DNA of 41,333 bases, from positions 1 to 41,333 of the IMG/VR virus record IMGVR_UViG_3300003322_000573; one strand, written 5' to 3'. This document shows positions 3,010 to 41,333 of the stretch, piece by piece. Numbering within the stretch: position 1 is the stretch's first letter; each line of letters begins with the position of its first letter. This DNA is from a virus. The notes beneath the pieces were generated by a model, which did not search any database, was not told the origin of the DNA, and was given only the letters and a program-made list of their open reading frames with translations. The position numbers and the translations under genes are program-made.

Positions 3010-5360
3010 TGAAGCTGACGCTTACGCAGATATGCAAGGACGAGCTTAAAAACCTTGAGCGGCTTTACCCGCTCGTTAAAGATTATATTGACGAATGGAT
3101 TGTGGTGGTGCCGCCAAAAGACAAGGCAATTCCATTTTTAAAGGGCAAAGCGACCGTCATAGAGCAGGATTTTACGCAGCCAATTGAACCAGAAATACGG
3201 GACGAGATGAAGCTTTACGGCCTTGAAGTTGACAAAGACTACAGACTGTTTAACTTCGCCAGCGCACGTAACGCTGCCCTACAGGCTGCTACCGGTGACT
3301 ATGTGCTGTGGCTAGATGCTGACGACGAGCCGCTTGGCATGGAAAACCTGAAACTGTTCATACAAAAGAACCCACAGGCTGACGTATTCGATGCCGTATA
3401 TGACTATTTCAGGGATGAGGAAGGTAACCCGATTTCCGACCATGTGCGAGAAAGGATTATTGCTAACAATGGAAGATTTGAGTGGAAAGGCGGCGCCCTT
3501 GGCCTTATTCATGAGACGCTTTTGCCTAAATATGAGATTTATGAACCGCTACGGGTTGACATGCCGGACGTAATTTTCCGGGTAAGGCATCATACTGATC
3601 ATGTAAATGAATCTTCGCTTCGTAACCACGCGGCGCTTCTTTACGAGTACTTGAAAACCGATGGAGAAGACGCCCGCACGACATATTACCTAGGTATTGA
3701 GTACTTTAACCGCGGTATGTATGACTACTGCATTAAGGTACTGCAAGAGTACGTAAAAGTAAGCGGTTGGGACGAAGAGAAATACATGGCTTACGTGAAG
3801 ATGGGGGAAGCGTACCACATGTTAGGCGACTTTGAATCTGGACGTAATATGTACCTGACTGGCACGAAGGAAATGCCGCACTACCCGCATGCGTACCTTG
3901 GGATTGGCGAATCGTACTTTGAAGAGGAGAAATGGGCTAAGGCGATTGAATTTACTATGACTGGGTTACAGAAGAAGCTTCCCGCTACGAAGTATGTTGT
4001 TGATAAAACTCGTTTTACGTTCCGCCCTGCTGGATACATTGCGCTTTCGTACATGCAGCTTGGAAAACAAAACGAAGCATACGAATGGTTTATGCGTGCA
4101 GCTAAAATGAACCCGAAGCACCCGTGGATTAAACAGTACGCCCCAATTTTCCAGGAAGCGAAAGACCTTGACGACTATGTACGAAGCTTTGTAAAGCTGG
4201 GGCAACTGTCGCAGCGGCTTTACCCGAAGACGCTTTCCAAGTTAGCCGAAGCCGTGCCTGATGAGCTGATGGATCAGGAGCTGCTAATGGACTTTAAGTG
4301 GCGTTATTCTCGGCCTAAGGTATGGGAAGACAATTCGGTCGTGTTCTTTTGTTCGAGCGCGTTTGAGGACTGGGGGCCTGAATCATTGGAAAAAGGGTGC
4401 GGCGGGAGCGAAGAAGCGGTTATACAGCTTTCTAAGCGTCTTGTGGAGAGAGGATGGGACGTCACCGTATATAACAACTGCGTAAAAGAACGGACGGTAG
4501 ACGGCGTGAAGTGGATGCGTTTCGAACGGTTTAACCCGAGGGACGTATTTAATATTCTGATCGGCTGGAGAAACAACCCGTTTGTAGAGCCAAAGGTCGC
4601 TTCGAAAAAGTTCATTGATATGCACGATGTGCCGTCGATGCTTGCCTACTACCAGGAAGATACCCTGAAAGACGTAAAGCTTTTCGTAAAAAGCGAGTAC
4701 CACAAGAGCTTATTCCCAGGACTGGGAGAGGAAAAGTTCGCTATTATTCCAAACGGGATTGACCAGAACCAGTTTGAAAAAACAGACAAAGTGAAAAATA
4801 ACCTGGTATGGACAAGTAGTTATGACCGTGGGCTCGAGTACCTACTTGAGATGTGGCCGGATGTGAAAAAAGAAGTGCCAGATGCGACGTTAGATGTTTA
4901 CTACGGCTTTAACCTGTTTGATTCGACCCCTTGGGGCAAAAGACCAGAGGGACAGGCGTGGAAAGCGAAGATGGAACGCCTGCTTGGGCAGGGCGGCGTA
5001 ACTGACCATGGACGCGTAGGTACGGACGAAGTGGCAAAGGCATACTCGAGAGCTGACGTATGGGCATACCCTACTGATTTCCCAGAAATTGACTGTATTA
5101 CGGCTACTAAGGCCATGGCTGCGGGATGCGTACCGATTGCAACTGATTATGCGGTTATGAAAGAACGAAACCAGGGCGTAGTAGTAGCAGGAAGCGCATC
5201 TGACCCAGAGGTGAGAGAGGTGTTTAAGAAGGAGCTGATATCGCTTCTGCAAGACGATGAGCGAAAAGAAGAGATTAGAAAAAAACTAAATGTAAGCAAT
5301 TACTCTTGGGATAGCATTGCTGACCAATGGGATAAGGAGTTTCGATGGAATACGGACTGA
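3009..5360 (+). CDS. Three-domain glycosyltransferase: GT2-like N-terminus, TPR repeats, GT1/GT4-like C-terminus (783 aa)
   Basis: N-terminus: FASARNAALQAATGDYVLWLDADDEP (GT-A fold with DxD). Middle: TPR-like repeats (YYLGIEYFNRGMYDYCIKVLQEY, YVKMGEAYHMLGDFESGRNMY, AYLGIGESYFEEEKWAKAIEF). C-terminus: GGSEEAVIQLSKRLVERGWDVTVY and EIDCITATKAMAAGCVPIATDY (GT-B, group-1 type). Confidence 0.8.
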   Translation: MKLTLTQICKDELKNLERLYPLVKDYIDEWIVVVPPKDKAIPFLKGKATVIEQDFTQPIEPEIRDEMKLYGLEVDKDYRLFNFASARNAALQAATGDYVLWLDADDEPLGMENLKLFIQKNPQADVFDAVYDYFRDEEGNPISDHVRERIIANNGRFEWKGGALGLIHETLLPKYEIYEPLRVDMPDVIFRVRHHTDHVNESSLRNHAALLYEYLKTDGEDARTTYYLGIEYFNRGMYDYCIKVLQEYVKVSGWDEEKYMAYVKMGEAYHMLGDFESGRNMYLTGTKEMPHYPHAYLGIGESYFEEEKWAKAIEFTMTGLQKKLPATKYVVDKTRFTFRPAGYIALSYMQLGKQNEAYEWFMRAAKMNPKHPWIKQYAPIFQEAKDLDDYVRSFVKLGQLSQRLYPKTLSKLAEAVPDELMDQELLMDFKWRYSRPKVWEDNSVVFFCSSAFEDWGPESLEKGCGGSEEAVIQLSKRLVERGWDVTVYNNCVKERTVDGVKWMRFERFNPRDVFNILIGWRNNPFVEPKVASKKFIDMHDVPSMLAYYQEDTLKDVKLFVKSEYHKSLFPGLGEEKFAIIPNGIDQNQFEKTDKVKNNLVWTSSYDRGLEYLLEMWPDVKKEVPDATLDVYYGFNLFDSTPWGKRPEGQAWKAKMERLLGQGGVTDHGRVGTDEVAKAYSRADVWAYPTDFPEIDCITATKAMAAGCVPIATDYAVMKERNQGVVVAGSASDPEVREVFKKELISLLQDDERKEEIRKKLNVSNYSWDSIADQWDKEFRWNTD

Positions 5361-22173: not shown

Positions 22174-23142
22174 GTGATTCCGAAAACACTCAATAAACAT
22201 ACCATCCCCACAATGGTGCGTGGAAACGTAAAAAGAGACACGGTTATACTTGGCGAATTACTGCTGCTTTATTTGATTGACTTACGGGACGAAGACGCTG
22301 CCGTGCATACGATTAGAAACAGAGGGTATACGCTCAGGAATTTTATAGGATATCTTCAAGATAATCACGTCTATGCCATTGATGAGCTGGAAAAATACCA
22401 TATAAAGGAATACTTGGCCTTACAAGCCCAAAAGGGCGCAAGGATGACAACCTTAAACACGGTGAGAAGGTTCATAAAGTGGTTTTTGTTATGGGTCATG
22501 GACGAACGGGTTTCGTTGTTTAATTTTGACCCGAGAGGCGTGAAAGAACTAAAGGATAAAAGCGAGGGGGACATGAATTTCGATCCTCTCACTCCCGAGA
22601 CCGTGTACAAAGTGATTGCTTCCATGACGAACGAGCAGGACAGGCTTATGACCGCCCTGATATATGAGGGAGGCCTGAGGATTAGCGAACTCGTTGGGCT
22701 GAAGGTCGAAAGGATAAACCATGACGAATTACGGGTATATGGAAAAGGAGACAAGATGCGTCCTGTTTACATTCCTGACGACTTGGCTACCCATCTGCAG
22801 AGATACATAAAAACAGCCGGATACACGAGCGGTTACGTTTTCAGGCCTGATCCACGCTTCAGTCCACAGGAATGTTACTCGATCGACACGGTACGGCAGC
22901 GTATTAAAAGATGGTTCGATGCTGCTGGGGTAGATATGTGGGTTCACCTTTTAAGGCATTCCTTCGCTATTGGCATGGTACAAAGAGGGGCGGATATTCG
23001 TAGCGTTCAGATGATGCTAGGGCACTCGGACATTAACACGACCAGACGGTACTTAAAATTCAGCGACGTATTTATTAGAGAGCAGCGTAGGAAATACCAT
23101 CACAACAAACCGATACGCATTGTGGAAAACTTGACGACGTAA
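22174..23142 (+). CDS. int: Tyrosine recombinase / phage integrase (322 aa, GTG start)
   Basis: GGLRISELVGL (Arg I), HLLRHSFAIGMVQRGADIRSVQMMLGHSDINTTRRYL (H-x-x-R, His, catalytic Tyr). N-terminal SAM-like core-binding region. Confidence 0.9.
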   Translation: MIPKTLNKHTIPTMVRGNVKRDTVILGELLLLYLIDLRDEDAAVHTIRNRGYTLRNFIGYLQDNHVYAIDELEKYHIKEYLALQAQKGARMTTLNTVRRFIKWFLLWVMDERVSLFNFDPRGVKELKDKSEGDMNFDPLTPETVYKVIASMTNEQDRLMTALIYEGGLRISELVGLKVERINHDELRVYGKGDKMRPVYIPDDLATHLQRYIKTAGYTSGYVFRPDPRFSPQECYSIDTVRQRIKRWFDAAGVDMWVHLLRHSFAIGMVQRGADIRSVQMMLGHSDINTTRRYLKFSDVFIREQRRKYHHNKPIRIVENLTT

Positions 23143-23147
23143 GCGCA

Positions 23148-23176
23148 TTGACAAGCCGCTTAATGTCTGCTAGTAT
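23148..23176 (+). promoter_or_regulatory. Sigma-70-type promoter: TTGACA-17 nt-TAGTAT
   Basis: Perfect -35 at 23148-53, 6 nt after the int stop; -10 (TANNNT) at 23171-76. AAGCCGCTTA lies in the spacer. Points toward the tRNA fragment (antisense) and the 1.4-kb non-coding block. Confidence 0.55.
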
Positions 23177-23250
23177 AAGAACATACGAAACGGAAATAAT
23201 CCGTTCAGTCGAAACGATGACAATCTTACAAGGCCACGGCCGCAAGTAAC

Positions 23251-23299
23251 CGTCTCCGGTTTTGGAGACCGGTGCTCTAGCCACCTGAGCTACACTCCT
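23251..23299 (-). tRNA. Truncated tRNA-Trp(CCA): 5' acceptor strand, D-arm, anticodon arm and variable-loop start only
   Basis: The minus strand reads AGGAGTG-TA-GCTC-AGGTGGCTA-GAGC-A-CCGGT-CTCCAAA-ACCGG-AGACG. U8, A14, G18G19, U33 and A37 are all in place, and the anticodon arm is identical to E. coli tRNA-Trp (from memory). No T-arm or 3' acceptor strand follows. Confidence 0.7.
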
Positions 23300-23310
23300 A
23301 TATAGGAAAG

Positions 23311-23339
23311 ATTATATCATATCGTTTGATAATTCGGCA
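23311..23339 (-). promoter_or_regulatory. Extended -10 promoter (TGATATAAT) driving the tRNA fragment
   Basis: TGaTATAAT on the minus strand at 23319-23311, with a weak -35 (TGCCGA) at 17 nt. The tRNA 5' end lies 11 nt after the -10. Confidence 0.55.
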
Positions 23340-24727
23340 GTTAAAACAGTGACAATATGGGGTCATTGGAATAGTCGAATAATTGAATCGAGATTCATGC
23401 ATCCCTGTCTTGTTACTGATGGGGATTTTTCTTATCCTAGGCTCAAACGGCAATTTGTACCTAGGTAGGAAAAATCCCACCATTATCATATTCATGTAGG
23501 TACATGGCGGTACAAGGATTGGGAGATTTCTTGTACCGCTTAACCTAAGTTACATCCATTACTGGATATACAAGTAAACGGTAACTATAAGAAAACAAAA
23601 TCGTTAGCCAACGGGAGACGGTGAAGGCTCCTTACGAAAGTAAGATACTCCCTCTTATGTAGCCTACCAGAAGTAAGATCCATCAACCTAGTGATTGATG
23701 GTTAATTAGTCCGCACAGTGGTAAGACTAGGGCACGCCACCTTACTTCACTTGTATATTCAAACTGGCCATATAAGTAGTGTGGACTTCTATATCCCCTC
23801 GCCACGCGAAGCCTGTATTCGCGGCTTATATGGCTTGCCAGTAGTAAGTGGCGGGGTCTAATTGTACAGACACGGCCGCTTCAACGAGCTTTAAACTCGC
23901 CGAGATGCGAGGCAGGGAAACTGTGAGAAGTTTTCGACAGCGGCTTACTTCTGGCACCAGTAATGGATGTAACGAATGTTATAGAGCAGCAGTGAGGGAA
24001 CGGCTAATGTTTACACGCGAGGAGCCTTGCGGTGACTAGGCGGCAAGTGGCCATTGGATGATACAACCAAATAAAAAAACTACTCATTAGCCAACCGCCC
24101 CTCTCTCATGTTCTATAACACGTTAAGCGTAGTAGTGCTGGAAATGAACAATGTTATGTCATGACCGATAGACATAGGCACACAAAGGATCGGATCTGAG
24201 GTGTCTTCCCCTCATCAGGCAAGCTAGTAAAGACCTGATGAGTGCACGGAGCATCATTTCTAGCACCATATGCTTAACACCTCACATAGCAAGGTGAATC
24301 GGTAAGTGCGAACCAGCGAGTCCCCGTAAGGGTGGAATGAAACATCTGGGTAAATCTGAGGATGCTATCTAGGCTTAGCGGCCGACGTTAATCAGTGAAT
24401 CGTATTATCCGCGATAGCTGCCCTGCTGAAATGATGACGACCTTTCATCGGGTCTAGGCAGGTAAGAAGCGGAGCAAGCCATACTTACCTTATCGGTTCA
24501 TCCTGCTATGTGAATAGATACCAGGTTTTAGAACATACCAATGCTAGCAGTAACCGAAACGGCGAAAGCAATTCTGCAGCACAGCGAGTAACTAAGGCAT
24601 AGACGTTACTGCTAGCTTCGTGTGTTCTAAATTCCATGCACCTACATGAATAGTTGGCGGGTATGCGAGGCCCGCCAACGTTGAGAGTGGTGTTGGCGCC
24701 AGGTGATGCCCACCCTTACCTGGCGCT
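23340..24727 (+). ncRNA. Candidate giant (~1.4 kb) structured non-coding RNA or structured leader
   Basis: ORF-free in all frames. More than 12 long helices, including 10-13 bp perfect stems, nested multi-tier domains, GNRA tetraloops on the + strand and one pseudoknot candidate (details in findings). The strand assignment is tentative. Confidence 0.55.
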
Positions 24728-24781
24728 ATCTCTGCTCTTGAATGTATGTAAAAACAAGTAACTCGCCGGAAGGAGTGAAGT

Positions 24782-25051
24782 ATGAAAGTAGATAACGTTA
24801 TGCAACAGGCCGAAGAGGCATTGGATTACTGGGAAAGTGGTTCGATGTGGGCGCGTCTTATTGAGCGTGACATAAACGACAACGACATGGAGGCACTGCA
24901 GTTCCATGTAGATGAAGCAAACGCCCAAAAAAACCTGCAGGAAAGCTTTACACATGATTTTATTGACCGGCTGATAGATGGGGAAGACATTTCTTTTAAC
25001 ACGGATAACTGGCCAGTAGTGCAGATGCCTAAAGGAGTTGGCCGTGAGTAG
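24782..25051 (+). CDS. Hypothetical early protein (89 aa)
   Basis: CCGGAAGGAG RBS 7 nt upstream. First gene of the rightward early operon. Confidence 0.7.
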   Translation: MKVDNVMQQAEEALDYWESGSMWARLIERDINDNDMEALQFHVDEANAQKNLQESFTHDFIDRLIDGEDISFNTDNWPVVQMPKGVGRE

Positions 25052-25808
25052 CGTGTTTGAAACAGGTATTCGCCCGAAAATTGACGAGTACTTAGATACA
25101 AAATCTAAAGAGCGTAGGGATTATGGCGAATACTGGTCGGCAAGTTCTGCTGGTTATTGTATGCGTAAGAACATATTTGAACGGTTGCAGGTTCCTTATA
25201 CGAACGATGATCCGCGTAAACAACGAGTATTCGCCGCTGGACATATTTTCCATGAGTGGGTACAGCGAATTACTAAAGAGAGCGGCTTGTCTGTTGCACA
25301 GGAGCTTGAGTTGCAAGATGAAGACCTGATGACACGGGGACATATAGATGACCTTGTGGTTATAGAAGGTAACCTGATTCTCTACGACTACAAGACGCAG
25401 AATAGCCGGGCATTTACCTGGCAAAAAGATAAGCCAATAAGCTACTTCCACAAAATGCAGCTTGGCACGTATATGTACATGCTACGTAAAAAGGGTGAAT
25501 CAACCCCTGAAGGTGCAGAAGGATATAGATTCAGAATGCTAAATGAAGCTCGTATTTTGAAAATATCCAAGGACGACCTACGAATGGACGAAAACGTTCT
25601 GGAGTGGAACAACGAGCTTGAAAGCAGGGTAGTAACTTATTGGCGTGAGCTGAACGAAGCTTGGAAACGTTTTAAGGACAGTGGCAGTCTTCCCATTTGC
25701 ACATGCGCCGACCGTGAAGGCGGCTTTATGGCGAAAGAGAAGTGGAACCCTTTCTTTTATAACGGAGAGCCGTGTTCGGCGGAGTGGTTTGAAAAACAGA
25801 GGAAATAA
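25044..25808 (+). CDS. PD-(D/E)XK exonuclease, Cas4/RecB-like (about 254 aa)
   Basis: GHIFHEWVQ, RGHIDDLVV and LYDYKTQ (nuclease core). One N-terminal Cys (AGYCMRK) and C-terminal Cys residues (PICTCADREGG...GEPCSAEW), as in Fe-S Cas4-type nucleases. GTG at 25044 has AAGGAG at 6 nt; the longest ORF starts at TTG 25038. Confidence 0.65.
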   Translation: MSSVFETGIRPKIDEYLDTKSKERRDYGEYWSASSAGYCMRKNIFERLQVPYTNDDPRKQRVFAAGHIFHEWVQRITKESGLSVAQELELQDEDLMTRGHIDDLVVIEGNLILYDYKTQNSRAFTWQKDKPISYFHKMQLGTYMYMLRKKGESTPEGAEGYRFRMLNEARILKISKDDLRMDENVLEWNNELESRVVTYWRELNEAWKRFKDSGSLPICTCADREGGFMAKEKWNPFFYNGEPCSAEWFEKQRK

Positions 25809-25818
25809 GGAGGTTAGA

Positions 25819-26025
25819 ATGGGGGCAACATTAGAGGGTAACAGGAAGTCGCACGAAACGCTTAAGCGCAAGCTTGGCCATGAAGGGTATATAGCCCATA
25901 TGCGTGCCATTGGCGCACGTGGCGGTAAAGCTTCTGTGAAAAAAGGGTTTGCGATGACGAGCAAGCAGTATAACGTCGGTACGTTTGAACACGCCGATTA
26001 TGATTCCATGGTGGGAGACGAATAA
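25819..26025 (+). CDS. Hypothetical basic protein (68 aa)
   Basis: AGGAGG RBS before the ATG at 25819. The ORF-track version (25681) overlaps the upstream gene and is probably over-extended. Confidence 0.6.
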   Translation: MGATLEGNRKSHETLKRKLGHEGYIAHMRAIGARGGKASVKKGFAMTSKQYNVGTFEHADYDSMVGDE

Positions 26026-26307
26026 ATGCACCAGTTATCCATGAATGACCTTTTTAATAAAGGTAAAGAGGACTGGCTAGAAAAGGCGCGCCATACCGCT
26101 AAGAAGCTTTTGGCTGGAAGATACAGCATAACCATAGAAGACGTACTGGAAATTTGCCCAAGGCCGGATTACTTGCATAGAAATACGATAGGGAAAGTAT
26201 TTAACGACGAGTTTGTGCCAGTGGGGTTCGAAAAATCGCGCCGGGCGATCTCTAAGGGACGCTGGATCCGCAAGTGGAGGCTAAGAAGTGAACGTCGTAC
26301 CTACTGA
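26026..26307 (+). CDS. Hypothetical protein (93 aa)
   Basis: ORF track. GGGAG RBS. Confidence 0.65.
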   Translation: MHQLSMNDLFNKGKEDWLEKARHTAKKLLAGRYSITIEDVLEICPRPDYLHRNTIGKVFNDEFVPVGFEKSRRAISKGRWIRKWRLRSERRTY

Positions 26308-26629
26308 GCAGCAAGAGCAGATTGCTTTAGTTCAGTACTTAACGATTAGAGGCATTCCGCACTTTCGTGTTCCGAATGAGACGTACACGAAAAGCTGGAA
26401 TCAAAAGCGGCTAAACAAAGCCCTTGGGGTGAAGTCCGGCGTTCCAGACCTGTTTGTAATTTACAAGAACCGAATGAAGGCTGTTGAGCTAAAGCGTAAG
26501 AAAGGAGGGGTGACAAGCGACGCACAGAAAGAGTGGATAGGCATATTAAACGAAGCTGGCATACCAGCAAAGGTATGTAAAGGAAGCGATGAGGCAATCG
26601 CGTTTATAGAAGGAGATGGTGATGATTGA
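26288..26629 (+). CDS. VRR-NUC domain nuclease (113 aa, GTG start)
   Basis: EQIALVQYL...IPHFRVPNE...GVKSGVPDLFVIYKNRMKAVELKRKKG...QKEWIGILNEAG, the typical VRR-NUC pattern (D...ELK core). Confidence 0.75.
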   Translation: MNVVPTEQQEQIALVQYLTIRGIPHFRVPNETYTKSWNQKRLNKALGVKSGVPDLFVIYKNRMKAVELKRKKGGVTSDAQKEWIGILNEAGIPAKVCKGSDEAIAFIEGDGDD

Positions 26630-26768
26630 AACAGAACCGCGCCAAGAATACATAGAGGAGTTACGGGTAGGTTATCTACTGGGAGATATTTCGATTGATC
26701 GGGATGACCCACGTACTACCTCAGGACTGACCGAAGAAGAAGTTAACTATATTACAGGAGAAAAGTAA
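26616..26768 (+). CDS. Small hypothetical protein (50 aa)
   Basis: AGGAG before the ATG at 26616. TAATG overlap with the next gene. Below the ORF-track cut-off. Confidence 0.45.
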   Translation: MVMIETEPRQEYIEELRVGYLLGDISIDRDDPRTTSGLTEEEVNYITGEK

Positions 26769-27274
26769 TGTCATTATACGAAAATGCAAGCAAGTACGTG
26801 AACACGGGAAGCGATATGTTCGTTAACGTATCATCTGGAAAGAAGGTTCGTCTGCGTATCATTGACCACCCGTACGTATCACTAAAACAGTGGCGTGATG
26901 GCGACGAGCTAAAAACCCGTTTCCACTGGCCGGTATGGGATTATGAGGCAGACAAGGTAAAAATTCTCGAGCAGGGGCCTATGGTGTTTAACCTGATCGC
27001 AGATATCGTTTCTGAATACGGTGAGGAGGTGCCAATGGACTGTGACATCGTTCTGGGACGTACCGGTGAGGGTATGAATACGCGGTACTCCGTCGTGCCA
27101 AGCAAAGTACGCGCTGACCTTCCCGCCTTTGAGAAGCCTGATATGGCGAGCATCGTAAAGGGTGGTGTTCCATTAAGCGAATTCGGCAAAGGTAAAAAGC
27201 CGGTCGTTCAAAGGAAAGATGCTGACTACGAGCCAGAGGAAGTGCCGCTAAATGCATATGACGACATTGCTTGA
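26768..27274 (+). CDS. Putative ssDNA-binding protein with acidic C-terminal tail (168 aa)
   Basis: Beta-rich core and a C-terminus DADYEPEEVPLNAYDDIA, as in phage SSBs (T7 gp2.5 type). Located among nuclease genes. Similarity not verified. Confidence 0.45.
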   Translation: MSLYENASKYVNTGSDMFVNVSSGKKVRLRIIDHPYVSLKQWRDGDELKTRFHWPVWDYEADKVKILEQGPMVFNLIADIVSEYGEEVPMDCDIVLGRTGEGMNTRYSVVPSKVRADLPAFEKPDMASIVKGGVPLSEFGKGKKPVVQRKDADYEPEEVPLNAYDDIA

Positions 27275-28299: not shown

Positions 28300-29199
28300 A
28301 TGTCAGAGATTAATAAAAGCGCACAGGAAGTTATTGACCGCCTGAAAGCGATTAACTACGACGAACCGTACTGGAATGAGAAGAAAGTTATCAAGGCATT
28401 TGAGAAACAGTATGAGCTTTTAGGTGTTGATATGCCTAAGGTAGAGATCGCAGATAATATGATGATCGGCTACCAGCTGGCGACGGATGCTGCTTGGGAT
28501 GCTGCTCGGGGTGCTGCTTGGGATGCTGCTTGGGATGCTGCTCGGGGTGCTGCTTGGGATGCTGCTTGGGATGCTGCTCGGGGTGCTGCTCGGGGTGCTG
28601 CCGCGAGAAATACCGGTCTCACAGATGCCGCAACCCTCAAATGGATAAAAGTATCAGAACAGGAGCTCATTGCTCTCGAAGGTGGGTTAGGTTACTTCTT
28701 CCCCATGAAAGATAAACTTATTCTTGTTCCTATGCCTCGTATGATCATGGTCGGTGAGACACTTCACTATGATCACGGTATGGCCGTCCAGTGGAAAGAT
28801 GGTCAGGGTTTTTACTTCCTCCGAGGGGTGAAGTTTGACGAAGATTTGTACTGGAAAGTGGTCGATCGTAAGCTGACAGCTGAAGAGACCCTGCTTATTA
28901 AGAACTCCGACCAGCGTATGGCTGCCATTTCGATGCTCCGCCCTGATGTACTACTAAAACAAATGAATGCCCACCTTATTGATACCGGTCAGAAAGGCAC
29001 CCGCTTATATGAAGTAAAAGACTTCATGGGCACCGGAAGAACTGAATACTGTATGCTCATGGACGACGCTTCGACTGACCGCCAGTTTATTGAGTGGACG
29101 CCACCAGAAATAGGCAAACAAGGTGATGCCGAACTCTGCCAAGCGCACGCGTTCGGTATCCCATTGGAAGATTGGCTGCTCGTTACAGAGGAAGCATAA
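28300..29199 (+). CDS. Repeat-containing protein (299 aa) with a (D/G)AA(W/R) tetrapeptide array
   Basis: DAAWDAARGAAWDAAWDAARGAAWDAAWDAARGAARGAAA, followed by a globular C-terminal domain (...HYDHGMAVQWKDGQGFYFLRGVKFDEDLYWKV...). I recall similar AAWDAAR arrays in bacterial hypothetical proteins; not verified. Confidence 0.75.
   Translation: MSEINKSAQEVIDRLKAINYDEPYWNEKKVIKAFEKQYELLGVDMPKVEIADNMMIGYQLATDAAWDAARGAAWDAAWDAARGAAWDAAWDAARGAARGAAARNTGLTDAATLKWIKVSEQELIALEGGLGYFFPMKDKLILVPMPRMIMVGETLHYDHGMAVQWKDGQGFYFLRGVKFDEDLYWKVVDRKLTAEETLLIKNSDQRMAAISMLRPDVLLKQMNAHLIDTGQKGTRLYEVKDFMGTGRTEYCMLMDDASTDRQFIEWTPPEIGKQGDAELCQAHAFGIPLEDWLLVTEEA
28486..28605. repeat. Tandem repeat: 10 x 12 nt (3 x 36-nt higher-order units plus degenerate units)
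   Basis: Units gatgctgcttgg, gatgctgctcgg and ggtgctgcttgg repeat, in frame with the 28300 ORF. Confidence 0.9.
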
Positions 29200-29212: not shown

Positions 29213-29419
29213 ATGAATACCAAAGAAATCTACGAACAAGACCGCTACGACCTCCTCCACCAAATCACCCACCGCGCCATCATGAAGGAATGGGACTTAG
29301 TAGAAAAATACAAAGCATTGTACCAGGAACTGTATGGCCCGTTACCTGGTGAAGCTGTACAAACACACCCGATAGTTATTCCGACCGGTAAAGGTGAGAT
29401 GTATGGAGCTGGCGTATGA
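29213..29419 (+). CDS. Hypothetical protein (68 aa)
   Basis: ORF track. AAGGAAG RBS. Its stop TGA lies inside the next start element. Confidence 0.65.
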   Translation: MNTKEIYEQDRYDLLHQITHRAIMKEWDLVEKYKALYQELYGPLPGEAVQTHPIVIPTGKGEMYGAGV

Positions 29420-29439
29420 GTGATAGTAAGTCTACAGAA
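29416..29439 (+). repeat. Start element copy 1 (ATGAGTGATAGTAAGTCTACAGAA)
   Basis: Core AGTAAGTCTACAGAA at 29425-39, with a 6-nt insertion after ATGAGT. Confidence 0.9.
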
Positions 29440-29706
29440 AACAAGAGGGGAGAAACTATGAATAGAGGGAGTTTAAGTGACTTTCTGCGCGAACTGGATG
29501 AGCGAGTGTGGGAATACGAGCGTGAGACACGAAGAACCTTAGATCGGCAGATAGAGCTGGAGCAGTGTGTGTATACGCTGCTGTCAGGGAAGAAACCAAC
29601 ACTCGACAACTACCAGTCTGTATGCAAAAGGCTTGACGGTATCAAAGATCACTTAAGAAACCCAGCGCTGTATGAACTCTCGAAGAAGAGGGCTGGTCAT
29701 GAGTAA
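29416..29706 (+). CDS. Hypothetical protein (96 aa), starts MSDSKSTE
   Basis: ORF track. Carries start element copy 1. Confidence 0.7.
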   Translation: MSDSKSTENKRGETMNRGSLSDFLRELDERVWEYERETRRTLDRQIELEQCVYTLLSGKKPTLDNYQSVCKRLDGIKDHLRNPALYELSKKRAGHE

Positions 29707-29716
29707 GCCTACAGAT
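29699..29716 (+). repeat. Start element copy 2 (ATGAGTAAGCCTACAGAT)
   Basis: 16 of 18 nt match the consensus. Contains the TAA of the upstream gene (29704-06). Confidence 0.85.
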
Positions 29717-29863
29717 GAAGGGAACTTTTTAATCGAAGTATCTGTTCCGCTCTACGAACGTATTAAACAGGAGCTTGGCGGTGCCTTTATTGACAACATG
29801 GAGCTTCACTACAGCCCGTATTGGAAAGCGATGAGTGAACGAGAGGAGCCCAAGGATGAGTAA
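29699..29863 (+). CDS. Hypothetical protein (54 aa), starts MSKPTDE
   Basis: Start placed at start element copy 2. The ORF-track start (29672) is probably over-extended. Confidence 0.6.
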   Translation: MSKPTDEGNFLIEVSVPLYERIKQELGGAFIDNMELHYSPYWKAMSEREEPKDE

Positions 29864-29873
29864 GTCTACAGAA
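29856..29873 (+). repeat. Start element copy 3 (ATGAGTAAGTCTACAGAA)
   Basis: 18/18. Contains the TAA of the upstream gene (29861-63). Confidence 0.9.
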
Positions 29874-30173
29874 TACTGCAACTGGACGTTCTGGGAGGCT
29901 ATAAAGCCCAGTAATAAGTGGGGCATTAGTCGTGATTGCGATGATACACCATTAGTGCAAAAGCCTGGCATTGGTCCATATGACTATGACGAAAGGGTAA
30001 CGCTCATACTAAGCCGTGACGGTGGTAAAAACTGGTCTGCCTACAAAGCATCATTGCAGCCACAAGTACAGCAAAGATACCCTTACTCAAGACCAGGTGC
30101 ACAATGCCCTAAGTGCCACAAAGAAGTAAATGGCGTAAACCCGTACGATGACGGTGAAACGTGGAGAAAATAG
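29856..30173 (+). CDS. Hypothetical protein (105 aa), starts MSKSTE; Cys pairs (CPKCH) suggest zinc binding
   Basis: Start placed at start element copy 3, with an AAGG RBS. Confidence 0.65.
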   Translation: MSKSTEYCNWTFWEAIKPSNKWGISRDCDDTPLVQKPGIGPYDYDERVTLILSRDGGKNWSAYKASLQPQVQQRYPYSRPGAQCPKCHKEVNGVNPYDDGETWRK

Positions 30174-30175
30174 GG

Positions 30176-30193
30176 ATGAGTAAGTCTACAGAA
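30176..30193 (+). repeat. Start element copy 4 (ATGAGTAAGTCTACAGAA)
   Basis: 18/18. The upstream gene stops 2 nt before it. Confidence 0.9.
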
Positions 30194-30364
30194 CCTCGAA
30201 CCAGCAAGGCTACCTGTACGAAAAAGAAGTCATTCGCTTCCCGTCAGACTGCTAGGAGAGCAGCAAAACGCAGGAATAAGGTCGAAAGTTACAAGTGGAG
30301 TACTTACTACGAATGTAATGTATGTGGTTTTTGGCACTTAACCACGAGAAAGGAAGAAGCATGA
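30176..30364 (+). CDS. Small basic protein (62 aa), starts MSKSTE; C-terminal YECNVCGFWHLT zinc-ribbon-like
   Basis: Start placed at start element copy 4. Confidence 0.65.
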   Translation: MSKSTEPRTSKATCTKKKSFASRQTARRAAKRRNKVESYKWSTYYECNVCGFWHLTTRKEEA

Positions 30365-30519
30365 ACTATAAAGATGTTGAGTCCGGAAGACCAGTCTTCC
30401 TTGATGGCTACGAAGTGTCGGATAGCCAGCGCTACAAGATGTGCGGCAACGCCGTGACCCCCAACATAATACAAGCGGTGTTTGAAAGGATACTCGCTGG
30501 GGAGGACAGCCATGAATAG
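30361..30519 (+). pseudogene. Orphan C-terminal fragment of a C5 cytosine DNA methyltransferase (52 aa)
   Basis: QRYKMCGNAVTPNIIQAVFERI matches motif X (GN[AS]V.P) of C5 methyltransferases. Motifs I-VIII are absent. It has an RBS and may still be translated. Confidence 0.5.
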
Positions 30520-30736
30520 GCCCGTAACGCCAAACCGAAAGAAAGGACAAGCAATGAAAGATACCACCCAAACCATCGAATCCATCCTCGACCAATACGG
30601 CCTCGCGCTGGCTACGGACGGCAAGCAGGGGCTTTCCAAGGCCGAGGCGGTCGAGGCTATCAATGCCCTCCGTAAAGCAGACGAACTCCGTAAGGAACTC
30701 GCTAAGCTCGAAGGTGAAATAGATGAGTGGCTATAA
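30512..30736 (+). CDS. Hypothetical protein (74 aa)
   Basis: GGGGAGG RBS before the ATG at 30512. The ORF-track start (30482) is over-extended. Confidence 0.6.
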   Translation: MNRPVTPNRKKGQAMKDTTQTIESILDQYGLALATDGKQGLSKAEAVEAINALRKADELRKELAKLEGEIDEWL

Positions 30737-31043
30737 AAAAATAACCAAACACCCCATCACCGGGAATTACGAGCTTGCTGAATATATAGATGATTACTTC
30801 CTGCCGCACGTTTACGGTGTAAAGTTCCCTTCCGAAGAAAAGGTGTATCCCTTTGATCTTATTGAAGAACGCCAGATTAAGAACTTTTGGGCTGAAGACG
30901 TAATCACCACTTTACGCGATAGTTTAGGACTCGAGTCCGGGTCAATTATAGACTTCTTGAATGATCTTAACATTACCTATAGAGATCGCTGGAAACGCGA
31001 CCCGCTGGGTGGTGAAGGCGCAACTATGGAGGGCACGGAATGA
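30723..31043 (+). CDS. Hypothetical protein (106 aa)
   Basis: ORF track. Its stop TGA lies inside start element copy 5. Confidence 0.65.
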   Translation: MSGYKKITKHPITGNYELAEYIDDYFLPHVYGVKFPSEEKVYPFDLIEERQIKNFWAEDVITTLRDSLGLESGSIIDFLNDLNITYRDRWKRDPLGGEGATMEGTE

Positions 31044-31063
31044 GTGATATTAAGTCTACAGAA
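31040..31063 (+). repeat. Start element copy 5 (ATGAGTGATATTAAGTCTACAGAA)
   Basis: Same 6-nt insertion type as copy 1. Contains the TGA of the upstream gene (31041-43). Confidence 0.9.
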
Positions 31064-31078
31064 CAGGAGTATCTATGA
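31040..31078 (+). CDS. 12-codon mini-ORF (MSDIKSTEQEYL), leader of the methyltransferase gene
   Basis: Start element copy 5. ATGA overlaps at both ends. Contains the AGGAG RBS of the next gene. Confidence 0.35.
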   Translation: MSDIKSTEQEYL

Positions 31079-31635
31079 AAGTCCTGGTTGCCTGTGAATA
31101 TTCTGGCCGAGTGCGTGAAGCATTTCGGAAACTGGGTCATGATGCCTGGAGCTGCGATTTGCTTCCAGCGGATGATAACTCACCATACCACTACCAAGGT
31201 GATGTGATGGCAATAATAAACGATGGGTGGGATTTAATGATTGCTCACCCGCCTTGTACGCACCTCGCAGTAAGTGGTGCTCGTTGGTTCAAAGATAAAC
31301 GCCAAGAGCAAGAAGATGCACTAGATTTTGTAGCTGGATTGCTGGGCGCAAACATACCAATGATTGCCCTCGAAAACCCCATTAGTGTTATCAGTAGTCG
31401 TATAAGAAAGCCCGACCAAATTATTCAGCCTTGGATGTTCGGTCACGGCGAGACGAAGGCTACCTGTTTGTGGTTGAAAAATCTACCTAAACTTTTACCG
31501 ACTGATATTGTTGAAGGTCGTGAAGCAAAAGTCCATCGAATGCCACCCGGGCCTGACCGGTGGAAGTTAAGAAGTATGACATATCAAGGAATAGCTGACG
31601 CTATGGCGCAGCAATGGGGAGCCAGAGATGAGTAA
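31075..31635 (+). CDS. Small DNA (cytosine-5-type) methyltransferase-like protein (186 aa)
   Basis: IAHPPCTHLAVSG (PC motif IV-like), IALENP (ENV motif VI-like). N-terminal VLVACEYSG in place of FxGxG. Resembles small phage DNA methylases (recall only). Confidence 0.6.
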   Translation: MKVLVACEYSGRVREAFRKLGHDAWSCDLLPADDNSPYHYQGDVMAIINDGWDLMIAHPPCTHLAVSGARWFKDKRQEQEDALDFVAGLLGANIPMIALENPISVISSRIRKPDQIIQPWMFGHGETKATCLWLKNLPKLLPTDIVEGREAKVHRMPPGPDRWKLRSMTYQGIADAMAQQWGARDE

Positions 31636-31645
31636 GTCTACAGAA
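31628..31645 (+). repeat. Start element copy 6 (ATGAGTAAGTCTACAGAA)
   Basis: 18/18. Contains the TAA of the methyltransferase gene (31633-35). Confidence 0.9.
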
Positions 31646-32329
31646 GAGTGTGCGCATCTTGAAAAATCATACACTGATGGAATGTATCCCACGGCAGAAG
31701 CACCATATGATGAGGGAGACTTCTGGTGGAGTGTAGATTGTAAGAACTGTGGCGAGGAACTCGCACACGGTGATTGTTGGAACATGCCCCAATGGGTTAA
31801 GGAGTTGACTAGGATGAGTAAGTCTACAGAAGAGTTGCGCGAGCAGTCTCAAAGCTATAGCCCCGAGATCAAGCAGCTTGCTTATGCGATGGAATCTATG
31901 TCACACGTCGAAAGGTGTGCAGCACTATACGACCTTGCCGAAAAACAACATGCTATCGGCATGAAAAATGGCCGCTTCGGCTATATATCAAAACACGACT
32001 TCGATCAAGAACTCAGCCGTAGGGTTGAGGAGACACGGTTAGAGGAGCTGGAGACACTAAACGATCAGAGCGAGGCAAAAGAGGTGGAGTCTGAGTTGTA
32101 CCCCGGAACCTATATGACCGTCTTTGACTTACCGATCAACCTTCTATGGAATCGAATCGCGGAACTAAAGAGGAGCATTGCCACCCTCAACAACCAAACT
32201 AAGGGAAGTATCTTTGGCATGGATGTGAAGGTTGACCCTAAAGTGCCCCAGTCCGGCGTTCGTTTCGATCATCCTGATGGTAGGTCAGAGGGCTTCACTC
32301 TGAATAGCCAAACTAAGGAGCCCGAATGA
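31628..32329 (+). CDS. Hypothetical protein (233 aa): a 62-codon Cys-rich module fused in frame to a second MSKSTE-initiated ORF (internal start 31814)
   Basis: Start element copies 6 (31628) and 7 (31814) are both preceded by SD-like GGAG/AGG. VDCKNCGEELAHGDC lies in the first module. Confidence 0.6.
   Translation: MSKSTEECAHLEKSYTDGMYPTAEAPYDEGDFWWSVDCKNCGEELAHGDCWNMPQWVKELTRMSKSTEELREQSQSYSPEIKQLAYAMESMSHVERCAALYDLAEKQHAIGMKNGRFGYISKHDFDQELSRRVEETRLEELETLNDQSEAKEVESELYPGTYMTVFDLPINLLWNRIAELKRSIATLNNQTKGSIFGMDVKVDPKVPQSGVRFDHPDGRSEGFTLNSQTKEPE
31814..31831 (+). repeat. Start element copy 7 (ATGAGTAAGTCTACAGAA)
   Basis: 18/18, and 22 nt shared with copy 6. Reached in frame 0 by the upstream ORF, so no stop is encountered. 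Confidence 0.9.
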
Positions 32330-37130: not shown

Positions 37131-37164
37131 AGCGTACAAGCTTGTCAAGTATTTTCAATAAGCG
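37131..37164 (-). promoter_or_regulatory. Reverse-oriented copy of the motif promoter: CGCTTATTGAAA-16 nt-TACGCT
   Basis: The only minus-strand copy of the motif. -35 at 37158-53 and -10 at 37136-31. Points into the AT-rich block, with no ORF behind it. Confidence 0.4.
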
Positions 37165-39672: not shown

Positions 39673-41333
39673 ATGAACAAGGACAAAAAAGCCAAGTCGA
39701 CGCAGCAACTCGTTACTGACCGCTTTAACAGGGCGCGGGACTACCGCGTAACCTCACAAGACGAGATATGGAAGCGCTCGTATAACAACTGGCGCGGCAT
39801 TTTGGACACCTCACTGTACCCGTGGCGCTCCAAGCTGTTCATTCCATGGAGCTTTACCGTCGTGGAGACGATTATTCCCCGGGTATTTGCCCGTGACCCA
39901 AAGTGGCGGGCTATTTCCCAAAGCCCTGACTTTCCACCTGATGGGCCGAGGGTCGTAAACGATCTTCTTTCGTACCAGTGGAACCGCATGGGCATGCGCC
40001 TGAAGATGTATGACTACATTAAGGATTCCCTGATGTACTCCAAAGGCTACGCGAAAGTAACTTGGAAGCACCAGATAAAAAACAAGACGTTCATGGAGCC
40101 GGTTGTCGGTAAGAATGACGAGATAACCTTTGAGAAAAAAGTGAGGAGCGACGTAGAATATGACGACCCAATGGTTGAAATCGTTGATCCGGCTGATATT
40201 TATATTGACCCTGACGCTACTACTTCGGGCTGCTATGGTGATGGCCTTTACCTTATCCATCGCAAGACTGTTCCGCTCGAGACGCTGAAGCAAAATCCGA
40301 ACTACAAGAATGTCGACAAGATAAAGCAGGCCTCTTACGCCGACCAGTACATGGACAAGCAGATGAGGTACCGGGACGAAGTGCCCCCGAAAGACAAACA
40401 CAAAGATTTGGTGGAAATACTTGAGTACTGGGAAGAAGACCGCCTGATCGTGGTGGCTAACAGGAGCGTCGTTCTTCGTGATTCTCCCAACCCATACTCC
40501 CATAAGCAAATTCCGTTCGTTGAGCTGGATGATTACCGTGACCCGCACCGGTTATATGGACAAAGCGAACTATCCGTTATTGACCCGTTACAACGCGAGA
40601 TTAATTCCATACGGAACCAGCGGCGTGACTACGACAATCTCGCCCTTAACCCGGTAATCCGTATGGTTCCGGGCGTCCTAAGAAATCCGAACTCCGCCGT
40701 TATGGCACCTGGCAGCGTATGGATGGTTTCTGACCTGCAGTCGATGGATACGTTTGCGCTTCCACAACTGCAGGGAAGCGCTCGGGAAATTGAGCAGCAG
40801 ACCGCCCAAGACATTAAAATGACGACCGCGATTGACGAAATTGGCATTGGCCTGCTGCCTGACAACCCGCAGAGGCGTAGCGCGACCGAAGTAGTAACGT
40901 CGCAGCAATCTGCCGGGCGTCGTTTCGCCATGAAGATAGCCCTGCTGGAAGAAGCGGTGAAGAAAATTGGCAAACTCGTATTTGCCCTTAACCAGCAGTT
41001 CCTTGATAAGGAAAGGATGATCCAGATTGTCGGAGAGCGGGGGGCAACGGAATGGGTACAGCTTTCGCCAGAGGACATACGCGGTGAATACTACATTGAC
41101 ATTGAAGCGGGCTCTATGCTTCCCAAGGATGAGATTGCCCAGCGCAAAGAAGCTATGGAGCTTTTGCAGTACATCACGCCGATAATCACGCCGGTAGTGG
41201 GAACCAACCCGGAAATTATTATGCCGGTCGTGAGAATGGTGCTTGATACCTTTGAGCTTCCGGGTAAGCAGGATATTTACGATGAACTGCAGAAGGTATT
41301 AGGGCAGGGCCCAGGCCCAGGCTGCGCAGGCGC
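39673..41333 (+). CDS. Portal protein (first ~553 codons; the ORF runs off the window end and continues at nt 1)
   Basis: Open frame with no stop, which is why it is absent from the ORF track. Lies directly after terL. Starts MNKDKKAKSTQQLVTDRFNRARDYRVTSQDEIWKRSYNNWRGILDTSLYPWRSKLFIPWSF... The size fits a portal. Confidence 0.75.
   Translation, partial: MNKDKKAKSTQQLVTDRFNRARDYRVTSQDEIWKRSYNNWRGILDTSLYPWRSKLFIPWSFTVVETIIPRVFARDPKWRAISQSPDFPPDGPRVVNDLLSYQWNRMGMRLKMYDYIKDSLMYSKGYAKVTWKHQIKNKTFMEPVVGKNDEITFEKKVRSDVEYDDPMVEIVDPADIYIDPDATTSGCYGDGLYLIHRKTVPLETLKQNPNYKNVDKIKQASYADQYMDKQMRYRDEVPPKDKHKDLVEILEYWEEDRLIVVANRSVVLRDSPNPYSHKQIPFVELDDYRDPHRLYGQSELSVIDPLQREINSIRNQRRDYDNLALNPVIRMVPGVLRNPNSAVMAPGSVWMVSDLQSMDTFALPQLQGSAREIEQQTAQDIKMTTAIDEIGIGLLPDNPQRRSATEVVTSQQSAGRRFAMKIALLEEAVKKIGKLVFALNQQFLDKERMIQIVGERGATEWVQLSPEDIRGEYYIDIEAGSMLPKDEIAQRKEAMELLQYITPIITPVVGTNPEIIMPVVRMVLDTFELPGKQDIYDELQKVLGQGPGPGCAG
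41311..41333. repeat. Terminal direct repeat (copy of nt 1-23)
   Basis: Exact 23-nt identity with the window start. Confidence 0.9.

Follow-up and report, generated by a model that had tools for sequence, protein, structure and literature searches.

A short start-codon element repeated across the early-gene array of a temperate phage

Why should seven open reading frames (ORFs) of one virus, encoding dissimilar proteins, open on the same stretch of nucleotides? The question is raised by a single, complete 41,333-nt JGI/IMG contig (IMG/VR record IMGVR_UViG_3300003322_000573, whose full length is termed the window below), in which a nin-like array of tiny early genes carries an 18-nt element, ATGAGTAAGTCTACAGAA, or a 24-nt form of it, directly on start codons. 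A sequence-only reading had drawn attention to seven copies on the starts of dissimilar proteins, and this description held up: match counts, in-frame ORFs and a Shine–Dalgarno (SD) sequence at every copy agreed with it. The evidence discussed here comes from this one genome plus one 2-kb contig.

The 18-mer occurred in four exact copies (29856, 30176, 31628 and 31814), with two mismatches at 29699 and with three at 29422; at up to three mismatches, the whole window held six matches versus 0.04 expected. Its 13-nt core, TAAGTCTACAGAA, was found six times exactly and once as a variant with two changes, versus 0.97 expected in the whole window. All core copies are located on the + strand within 29427–31831, and at up to two mismatches none was detected outside this interval, nor specifically in the control region at 23.1–24.8 kb. 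The 24-nt form, present at 29416 and 31040, reads ATGAGTGATA[G/T]TAAGTCTACAGAA. When the seven copies were aligned with 40-nt flanks, invariance was limited to the core columns and the flanks were unrelated. The identity of the four exact copies had been put at 18 nt, which is correct as far as it goes, but these copies also agree in the R-G before the ATG, so that about 20 nt are common to them; likewise, copies 6 and 7 (31628 and 31814) do share the 22 nt described, but the common stretch grows to ~27 nt once an indel of 1 nt is tolerated (GAAGAGT[G]TGCGC). An assembly or adapter artefact was ruled out, as every copy is in frame and properly spaced from an SD, and none reaches the length of assembler k-mers. 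A likeness to splice sites (GTAAGT...CTACAG) and an AccI site (GTCTAC) within the element were judged coincidental.

Each copy opens an in-frame ORF, of 96, 54, 105, 62, 12, 62 + 171 and 171 codons in order, behind a GGAG-type SD that lies 6–9 nt upstream and varies in sequence and spacing. Five copies encode MSK(S/P) and the two 24-nt copies encode MSD(S/I)K. Copy 1 (29416–29439), a 24-nt form with the sequence ATGAGTGATAGTAAGTCTACAGAA, heads the ORF 29416–29706, inside which a second in-frame ATG with its own SD (GAGGGGAG) is found at 29458, probably the original start. Copy 2 (29699–29716) is a diverged 18-nt form, ATGAGTAAGCCTACAGAT, which encodes MSKPTD and whose internal TAA ends the upstream ORF. 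The exact copies 3 (29856–29873) and 4 (30176–30193) head a conserved 105-aa gene (29856–30173) and a 62-aa zinc-ribbon-like ORF (30176–30364), respectively. Copy 5, again of the 24-nt form (31040–31063), heads a 12-codon leader ORF (31040–31078; MSDIKSTEQEYL followed by a stop) that includes the SD (AGGAG) of a DNA methyltransferase gene and whose TGA overlaps the methyltransferase ATG at 31075 (ATGA). Copy 6 (31628–31645), an exact 18-mer, is followed by 62 codons without a stop and runs in frame into copy 7 (31814–31831), yielding a fusion ORF of 233 aa (31628–32329). This fusion, the overlap between mini-ORF stop and methyltransferase ATG, and the presence of ATG, TGA and TAA in the three frames of the element had all been described before and were confirmed. 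The earlier statement that five upstream genes terminate on the embedded stops agreed with the ORF table in every case (TGA 29417–29419, TAA 29704–29706, TAA 29861–29863, TGA 31041–31043 and TAA 31633–31635); the gene before the 30176 copy stops at TAG 30171–30173, 2 nt ahead of the ATG.

Did these genes originate with the element or receive it? The product of the 29856 gene belongs to a cluster of 15 proteins at 90% identity, of which only the member from the window begins MSKSTEYCNW, while the other 14 start MELEYCNW, MKELEYCNW, MQKELEYCNW, MNDVIEYCNW, MITKLEYCNW and others, never MSKST. At the DNA level, the gene is ~80–85% identical to homologues in the unrelated phage backgrounds L081, L084 and L085. 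This homology extends from codon 6 (GAA) to the penultimate codons, ends ~10 nt before the next copy, and breaks exactly at the 3′ edge of the element. The comparison indicates that copy 3 replaced the native first five codons of the gene. The methyltransferase (phrog_757; 31075–31635, + strand), a widely mobile cassette with more than 600 matches in IMG/VR, kept its native start. In every methyltransferase homologue inspected, the start codon corresponds to 31075 and the DNA before it is unrelated; the copy at 31040 therefore represents an added leader ORF. The last four codons and the stop of the methyltransferase come from the SD and element of copy 6. As for the 30176 product, a 46%-identical homologue (in L100) starts MSGVQL. 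Since homologues of all three genes occur without the element, the copies are not diverged tandem duplicates of one gene, which the sequence-only reading had already doubted and which the break of DNA homology at the edge of the element also contradicts. The element also coincides with mosaic breakpoints, in line with the proposed cassette boundary: the similarity that the 29856 gene and the methyltransferase show to other phages is interrupted at or beside copies.

The origin of the element emerged from the gene at 31814–32329 (+ strand). An exhaustive HMMER search with its product revealed a small family with the conserved core YSPEIRxLAYAMExMSHxERC...GxKNGRFGY. The best and only close homologue (P0024; 64% identity over all matched stretches, 87% over the N-terminal 70 residues) starts MSDSKSTEELREQ (MSDSKSTEELREQAQSYSPE). 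Its gene, encoded on the 2-kb Logan contig L134, starts with ATGAGTGATAGTAAGTCTACAGAA, thus matching the window copy at 29416 at 24/24 positions, and homology to the 31814 gene continues past the element (82% over 217 nt). Because homology is unbroken past the element only for the 31814 gene, the alignments identify the element as the native 5′ end of this gene, copy 7, and the gene as the founder from which the other copies were donated. Copy 7 had been regarded as an internal copy; it is indeed in frame with 31628, but is the true start of a conserved gene. The element occupies one of the seven gene starts of L134, and more distant members of the founder family start MSKDTQTE, MSNTDDE, MSDTEQQ or MTAIEEE. 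Copying of the founder-family 5′ end was not seen in the five other phage loci examined for it (L254, L256, L257, L258 and L260).

Contigs with the founder family favour ATGAG(T/C)AA(A/G), that is MSK, at early-gene starts, with synonymously varied codons; L256 has four MSK starts in a row. The variation of codons argues that phages of this group have a preference at the level of the peptide or the ramp, and points to the exact copies of the window as one instance of the preference that was then copied. Adjacent small genes start ATGAGCAA(G/A) or ATGAGTAAA (MSK) at 625–1796 of L256 and at 476, 727 and 1848 of L134. The native origin of the element in the 31814 family, the lineage-wide habit of MSK starts and the precedents of SKIK/SKX N-termini and the integron leader ORF-11 (see below) had gone unnoticed in the sequence-only reading. 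Two further observations concern the founder gene. Its 3′ half contains a 23-nt direct repeat (…CAACCAAACTAAGG) at 32182–32204 and 32296–32318, one copy of which is conserved in L134 (LATLNNQxKE) amid unrelated surrounding sequence; the founder gene is therefore itself mosaic. In L260 (1133–1375 and 5369–5998), a founder homologue directly follows a Gad2-family (anti-Gabija) gene and lies near an Acb2/Tad1-hairpin gene, and the family may belong to anti-defence or accessory loci.

The two forms of the element are related by loss of GATAGT between two AGT repeats, from 24 nt to 18 nt. Both are multi-copy in the window, and copying therefore occurred more than once. Three differences are found among the copies, all of them non-synonymous (S to P, E to D, S/I); synonymous differences are absent. 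From this identity at synonymous positions, selection or gene conversion acting on the nucleotides had been deduced; we attribute the identity to copying. Compared with the one orthologue, the element has 5/5 synonymous sites conserved, with ~64% of conserved codons elsewhere being identical; at P ~0.1, nucleotide-level selection is thus not demonstrated.

How unusual is such an element? Searches with the exact 18-mer gave 0 matches in IMG/VR and single matches at chance level in JGI metagenomes (7) and GTDB genomes (4), with no multi-copy contig; a degenerate 15-mer gave at least 119 single matches in IMG/VR, none at a gene start, which we regard as noise. Scans of IMG/VR, JGI metagenomes and GTDB returned no further contig with more than one copy. 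Neither the methyltransferase relatives (80 loci) nor the TerL relatives (37 loci) had the element or the early genes, and TerL relatives at 70–75% identity were likewise devoid of both. INPHARED isolate phages showed no DNA match to the region and no protein match for the 31814 or 29856 products, and a profile of the 31814 family found nothing in IMG/VR. The other element-bearing products are ORFans and singletons; five ORFan products joined as one query retrieved no homologue. Three or more identical start-anchored 15-mers were found in none of 256 other fetched loci (2.5 Mb), while the window has four. So far, one genome alone shows the multi-copy state, and the orthologue comes from the one 2-kb contig. 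Repeats that resemble the start-associated sequences (SAS) of mycobacteriophages, located upstream of starts, were present in other loci, namely three copies of AGGAGACTACACCGTGA in L055, and AGGAACTAGCA in both L034 and L257. Repeated start regions are therefore not rare; a coding-side repeat is. In L055, an environmental phage contig, the SAS-like repeat has the form AGGAGACTACACC-GTG (8510, 9109 and 10007), and AGGAACTAGCA is located at 3489, 3654 and 5624 of L034 and at 152, 1564, 2288 and 7923 of L257, two unrelated loci.

What, then, could the copies do, and how could they have spread? The copies are real, they form in-frame starts, they have replaced or preceded native starts and, as the homologues show, they derive from the 31814 gene. 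Our preferred reading, offered tentatively, is that the element is a portable start module which recombination has copied around a hypervariable early-gene array, and that its copies can serve as cassette-boundary repeats; we regard this as a serious possibility rather than a probability. Under this proposal, the 5′ end of the 31814 gene (ATG plus five or seven codons) would have been copied onto six neighbouring gene starts within the phage by recombination, in at least two rounds, given that the 24-nt and 18-nt forms are each multi-copy. The element would provide an ATG behind any local SD present. Its first 8 nt (ATGAGTAA) would stop the upstream frame in the other two frames, so that termination could be followed by restart in the manner of translational coupling, and codons 2–6 (S-K-S-T-E) would give the following body an MSK-type early-elongation ramp, of a known kind that raises yield. 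The bodies at 29856, 30176, 31628 and 29699 are fused directly to the element, while others are reached differently: the mini-ORF at 31040 precedes the methyltransferase as a short leader, and the copy at 29416 forms an in-frame extension. In the predicted fold of 31025–31125, the methyltransferase SD pairs with codons 3–5 of its own gene (z-score not significant), and translation of the leader would melt this pairing. Once present, the direct repeats might act as short-homology boundaries allowing clean in-frame deletion, duplication or exchange of cassettes. A dedicated trans-acting factor would not be required, and the module might persist as a ready-made junction combining ATG, two-frame stops within 8 nt and an MSK-type start.

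We counted two features of the surroundings in support of an unstable region. Upstream of the array and in the same operon lies a recombination module (25044–27274, + strand) encoding a Cas4/RecB-like exonuclease, a VRR-NUC/Holliday-junction resolvase and SSB. Furthermore, a 52-aa ORF at 30361–30519 (+ strand) represents the relic C-terminus (motif X, GNAV) of a C5 cytosine methyltransferase, 550 nt upstream of the intact, unrelated phrog_757 methyltransferase at 31075, thus attesting to past deletion and illegitimate recombination inside the array.

Several observations weigh against the portable start module. Predicted accessibility and minimum free energy at the element starts were no different from those at 25 other operon starts (p ~1). 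The shared unit comprises only the ATG and the next 15 nt plus 1–2 nt upstream, the founder SD and spacer not having been copied, which is odd for hitch-hiking. Four to five junctions lie at exactly +18, directly after GAA; random illegitimate recombination would not predict this, which may point to a discrete site or to a selected unit with strict bounds. In addition, the 24-nt form encodes MSD(S/I)K, not MSK, and the multi-copy state stems from one genome that lacks a close relative for comparing cassette gain and loss. The uncopied founder SD and the junctions exactly after codon 6 therefore keep two other readings alive, an operator and a dedicated site.

As a translational or RNA operator, the 18–20 nt on the start codon would be bound by a small RNA or by a protein of phage or host origin. 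This factor would co-regulate a small regulon of early genes, for instance by shutting them off in the manner of T4 RegA, and genes would join the regulon through fusion to the site. Exact conservation, sharp edges on both sides and overlap with the AUG are what such a site would display, as are the single orientation, the restriction to early genes and the founder SD left behind; the SAS repeats of Cluster K have likewise been proposed as binding sites. A binding partner, however, did not come to light. Among ~30 early-region proteins, no match to RegA (PF01818) or another RNA-binding Pfam domain was detected, and the RegA-like repressor considered in the sequence-only reading received no support. 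The same applies to the complementary RNA suggested there, since the best candidate on both genome strands reached –18.5 kcal/mol, within the background of –16.5 to –22.2 for shuffled elements, and no Rfam family passed the gathering threshold in the scan. Binding sites that evolve independently are normally degenerate rather than identical, and conservation relative to the orthologue was not significant, as noted above (P ~0.1). We consider the operator doubtful.

Slightly more doubtful is the assumption that the copies are neutral relics, namely recent scars of serial duplication and gene replacement that merely provide a usable start and are identical owing to their youth. Restriction of the multi-copy state to one genome, the single copy among seven gene starts of the orthologue contig, the missing accessibility advantage and the deletion scars in the region would all be in agreement with this assumption. 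Yet chance would hardly produce seven independent junctions, of two forms, in a stretch of 2.4 kb, the junction positions are non-random, and nothing similar was found in the 2.5 Mb of other phage loci.

We judge a dedicated site for cassette capture or recombination to be unlikely. Such a site might be integron-like, target-duplicating or similar to the promoter-early stem-loop (PeSL) repeats of T4-type phages, and the shared N-terminus would then be a by-product. Every cassette is bounded by direct repeats, junctions fall at exactly +18 in four to five copies, and two variants, each multi-copy, imply repeated rounds; the phage encodes a tyrosine recombinase and a recombination module, PeSL repeats bring about shuffling of this kind and give rise to mini-circles, and a long-standing model explains phage mosaicism by short conserved boundary sequences. 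On the other hand, the copies lack the structure expected of a recombination site, a role that had been suggested earlier: neither inverted repeats (29350–31900) nor att-like structures accompany them, and attC-like inverted repeats or a second conserved site are missing at the 3′ ends of cassettes. An ordinary phage integrase, encoded 6 kb away beside a tRNA-like attP candidate, was the sole recombinase found. The donors from which the 29856 gene and the methyltransferase came are without the element, so that at least the first capture of these two genes was illegitimate; 18 nt are short for efficient homologous exchange; and the 18-mer and 15-mer scans produced no contig with variant cassettes.

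More improbable still is a shared N-terminal peptide tag, MS(DS)KSTE, serving as a targeting, processing or degradation signal like the capsid-targeting sequence (CTS) of phage T4. The unit begins exactly at the start codon, always in frame, and is common to unrelated small early proteins; S-T-E resembles the S/A/G-x-E sites of prohead proteases. T4 internal proteins, which are diverse and counter host defence, have only the CTS in common, and the founder family adjoins anti-defence genes (Gad2, Acb2/Tad1-like) in another phage. However, the 12-codon leader ORF, which has no protein body, argues against the tag proposed in the sequence-only reading, and another copy probably precedes the real start. 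All three differences among the copies are non-synonymous, the opposite of what peptide-level constraint would produce; six residues are very short for a targeting signal, and the genes are located in the early operon, not beside head genes. Most remote of all is the idea that the array constitutes a phage-borne gene-capture device, with the 18–24-nt start-codon repeat as a target-duplicating (CRISPR-repeat-like) or attI-like insertion or crossover site; were it true, captured DNA would gain an in-frame start, a translation-enhancing N-terminus and upstream-frame stops, so that accessory or anti-defence genes new to the phage would find an adaptor for their expression already in place.

The array is part of the genome of a temperate phage, the assembly of which is circularly closed at ~41,310 bp by an identical 23-nt terminal overlap (1–23 = 41311–41333). 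The integrase, a tyrosine recombinase (22174–23142) matching the general phage integrase family phrog_1, is followed in order by a 1.6-kb ORF-free region, a rightward early operon, the nin-like small-gene array to which the element is confined, TerS and TerL; starts and stops of the tiny genes overlap nearly throughout the nin-like run. No convincing ORF was recognized in the 1.6-kb stretch between the integrase and the first early gene (23143–24780). Within it, the + strand of 23540–24520 has a folding energy of –345 kcal/mol (z = –6.6 relative to 20 shuffles; – strand z = –4.7), and the predicted fold comprises several long-range helices in separate domains. Rfam gave no match to this stretch, and neither INPHARED nor the fetched loci contained DNA similar to it. 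The ORF-free region is a candidate for a large structured RNA, a replication origin or a regulatory region. Directly downstream of the integrase, a tRNA-like match scoring 27.6 bits, below the gathering score of 29, was noted at 23209–23299 on the – strand; ARAGORN calls no tRNA in the window, this stretch included, and the match probably represents an attP core derived from a tRNA. Genome-wide, 12 occurrences of the motif CGCTTATTGAG were counted (0.7 expected), mostly in intergenic gaps, with sites on the + strand at 791, 2532, 8138, 9135, 14034, 19032, 21381, 21889, 36249, 37228 and 39630 and on the – strand at 37154. Three occurrences are found in the TerL relative L086 as well, and the sequence is probably a phage promoter or regulatory motif. 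A 12-nt tandem repeat of ~10 or more units (28461–28625), in the ORF 28300–29199, encodes AAWDAARG-type repeats.

The element bears on a debate about phage mosaicism, in which random gene insertion followed by selection is set against guidance by short conserved boundary sequences. Seven junctions with the same 18–24 nt, imposed on existing genes and with an identifiable donor, amount to a rare, clean natural case of a reusable junction. Should the module work as we propose, it would be a natural counterpart of translation-enhancing N-terminal tags and bicistronic leader designs, and would suggest how phages express freshly acquired ORFan or anti-defence genes at once.

How does the element compare with known systems? 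The SAS and extended SAS (ESAS) of Cluster K mycobacteriophages and Cluster EF Microbacterium phages are 13-bp asymmetric repeats in about 10–19 copies, which lie in one orientation at the ATG starts of non-structural genes of different families, sometimes hold the stop of the upstream gene, and are presumed to function in translation. Seven short, asymmetric copies on the + strand only, at ATG starts of unrelated early genes, closely recall this arrangement. SAS, however, precede the start by 3–8 bp and include the SD (GGGATAGGAGCCC), whereas here the repeat begins at the ATG, or 1–2 nt before it, and is translated, and the upstream SDs are not conserved. Moreover, SAS are kept at the same gene families throughout a cluster; the element is present at the one orthologue found (L134) and absent from relatives with 70–75% TerL identity, which are without the genes as well.

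In integrons, the attI1 leaders ORF-11 and ORF-18 are short junction ORFs with a canonical initiation region. Their frame runs into the inserted cassette, the stop being supplied by the junction, and they drive the downstream gene by termination–reinitiation; N-terminal fusions also occur. The leader at 31040–31078, ending in ATGA on the methyltransferase start, is laid out like ORF-11/18 and also like synthetic bicistronic designs, with coupling as a presumption from this layout. An integron has one attI leader per array, an attC hairpin per cassette and an adjacent IntI, whereas every cassette here has the module and 29350–31900 contains no attC-like inverted repeat. No IntI was identified, an IntI-specific domain not having been examined, and the sole tyrosine recombinase (22174–23142) is 6 kb away.

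PeSL are intergenic promoter-plus-terminator units, consisting of a sigma-70 early promoter and a stem-loop terminator, between non-essential ORFan genes in the hyperplastic regions of T4-type phages. They have been shown, and lambdoid boundary sequences proposed, to mediate insertion, deletion and replacement by recombination. Repeats between the cassettes of a hyperplastic region, at mosaic breakpoints, are common to both systems, but the element is coding, unstructured and only 18–24 nt long, and no promoter-like or terminator-like site was found at any copy. On the translational side, SKX/SKIK N-termini, used as engineered tags, raise yield independently of codons, and codons 3–5 (the "short translational ramp") set yield in E. 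coli. The element likewise places M-S-K-x right after the start and spans the codons that control early elongation. The SKIK/SKX effects are engineered or statistical and come from E. coli, whereas the module is natural and its 24-nt form encodes MSD(S/I)K. To our knowledge, natural copying of one translation-enhancing start module across genes has not been described.

The T4 CTS, a peptide of ~10 residues ending in an L/I-x-E protease site, is carried by packaged internal proteins. Unrelated small proteins of a hypervariable locus that share only a short N-terminal sequence are reminiscent of it, but here the peptide has 6–8 residues ending in S-T-E, one copy has no protein body, and the variation is non-synonymous. 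The T4 RegA operator similarly overlaps the AUG of several early mRNAs, yet PF01818 is not represented among the ~30 early-region proteins. Cluster A stoperators, operators of the early-promoter repressor, are dispersed genome-wide, in contrast to an element that is confined to 29427–31831 and absent from 23.1–24.8 kb. By their defining features, the copies are neither PeSL nor an integron, a stoperator set, a RegA regulon or CTS. They are best described as a coding-side variant of start-associated or boundary repeats, found so far in one genome and with an identifiable donor gene.

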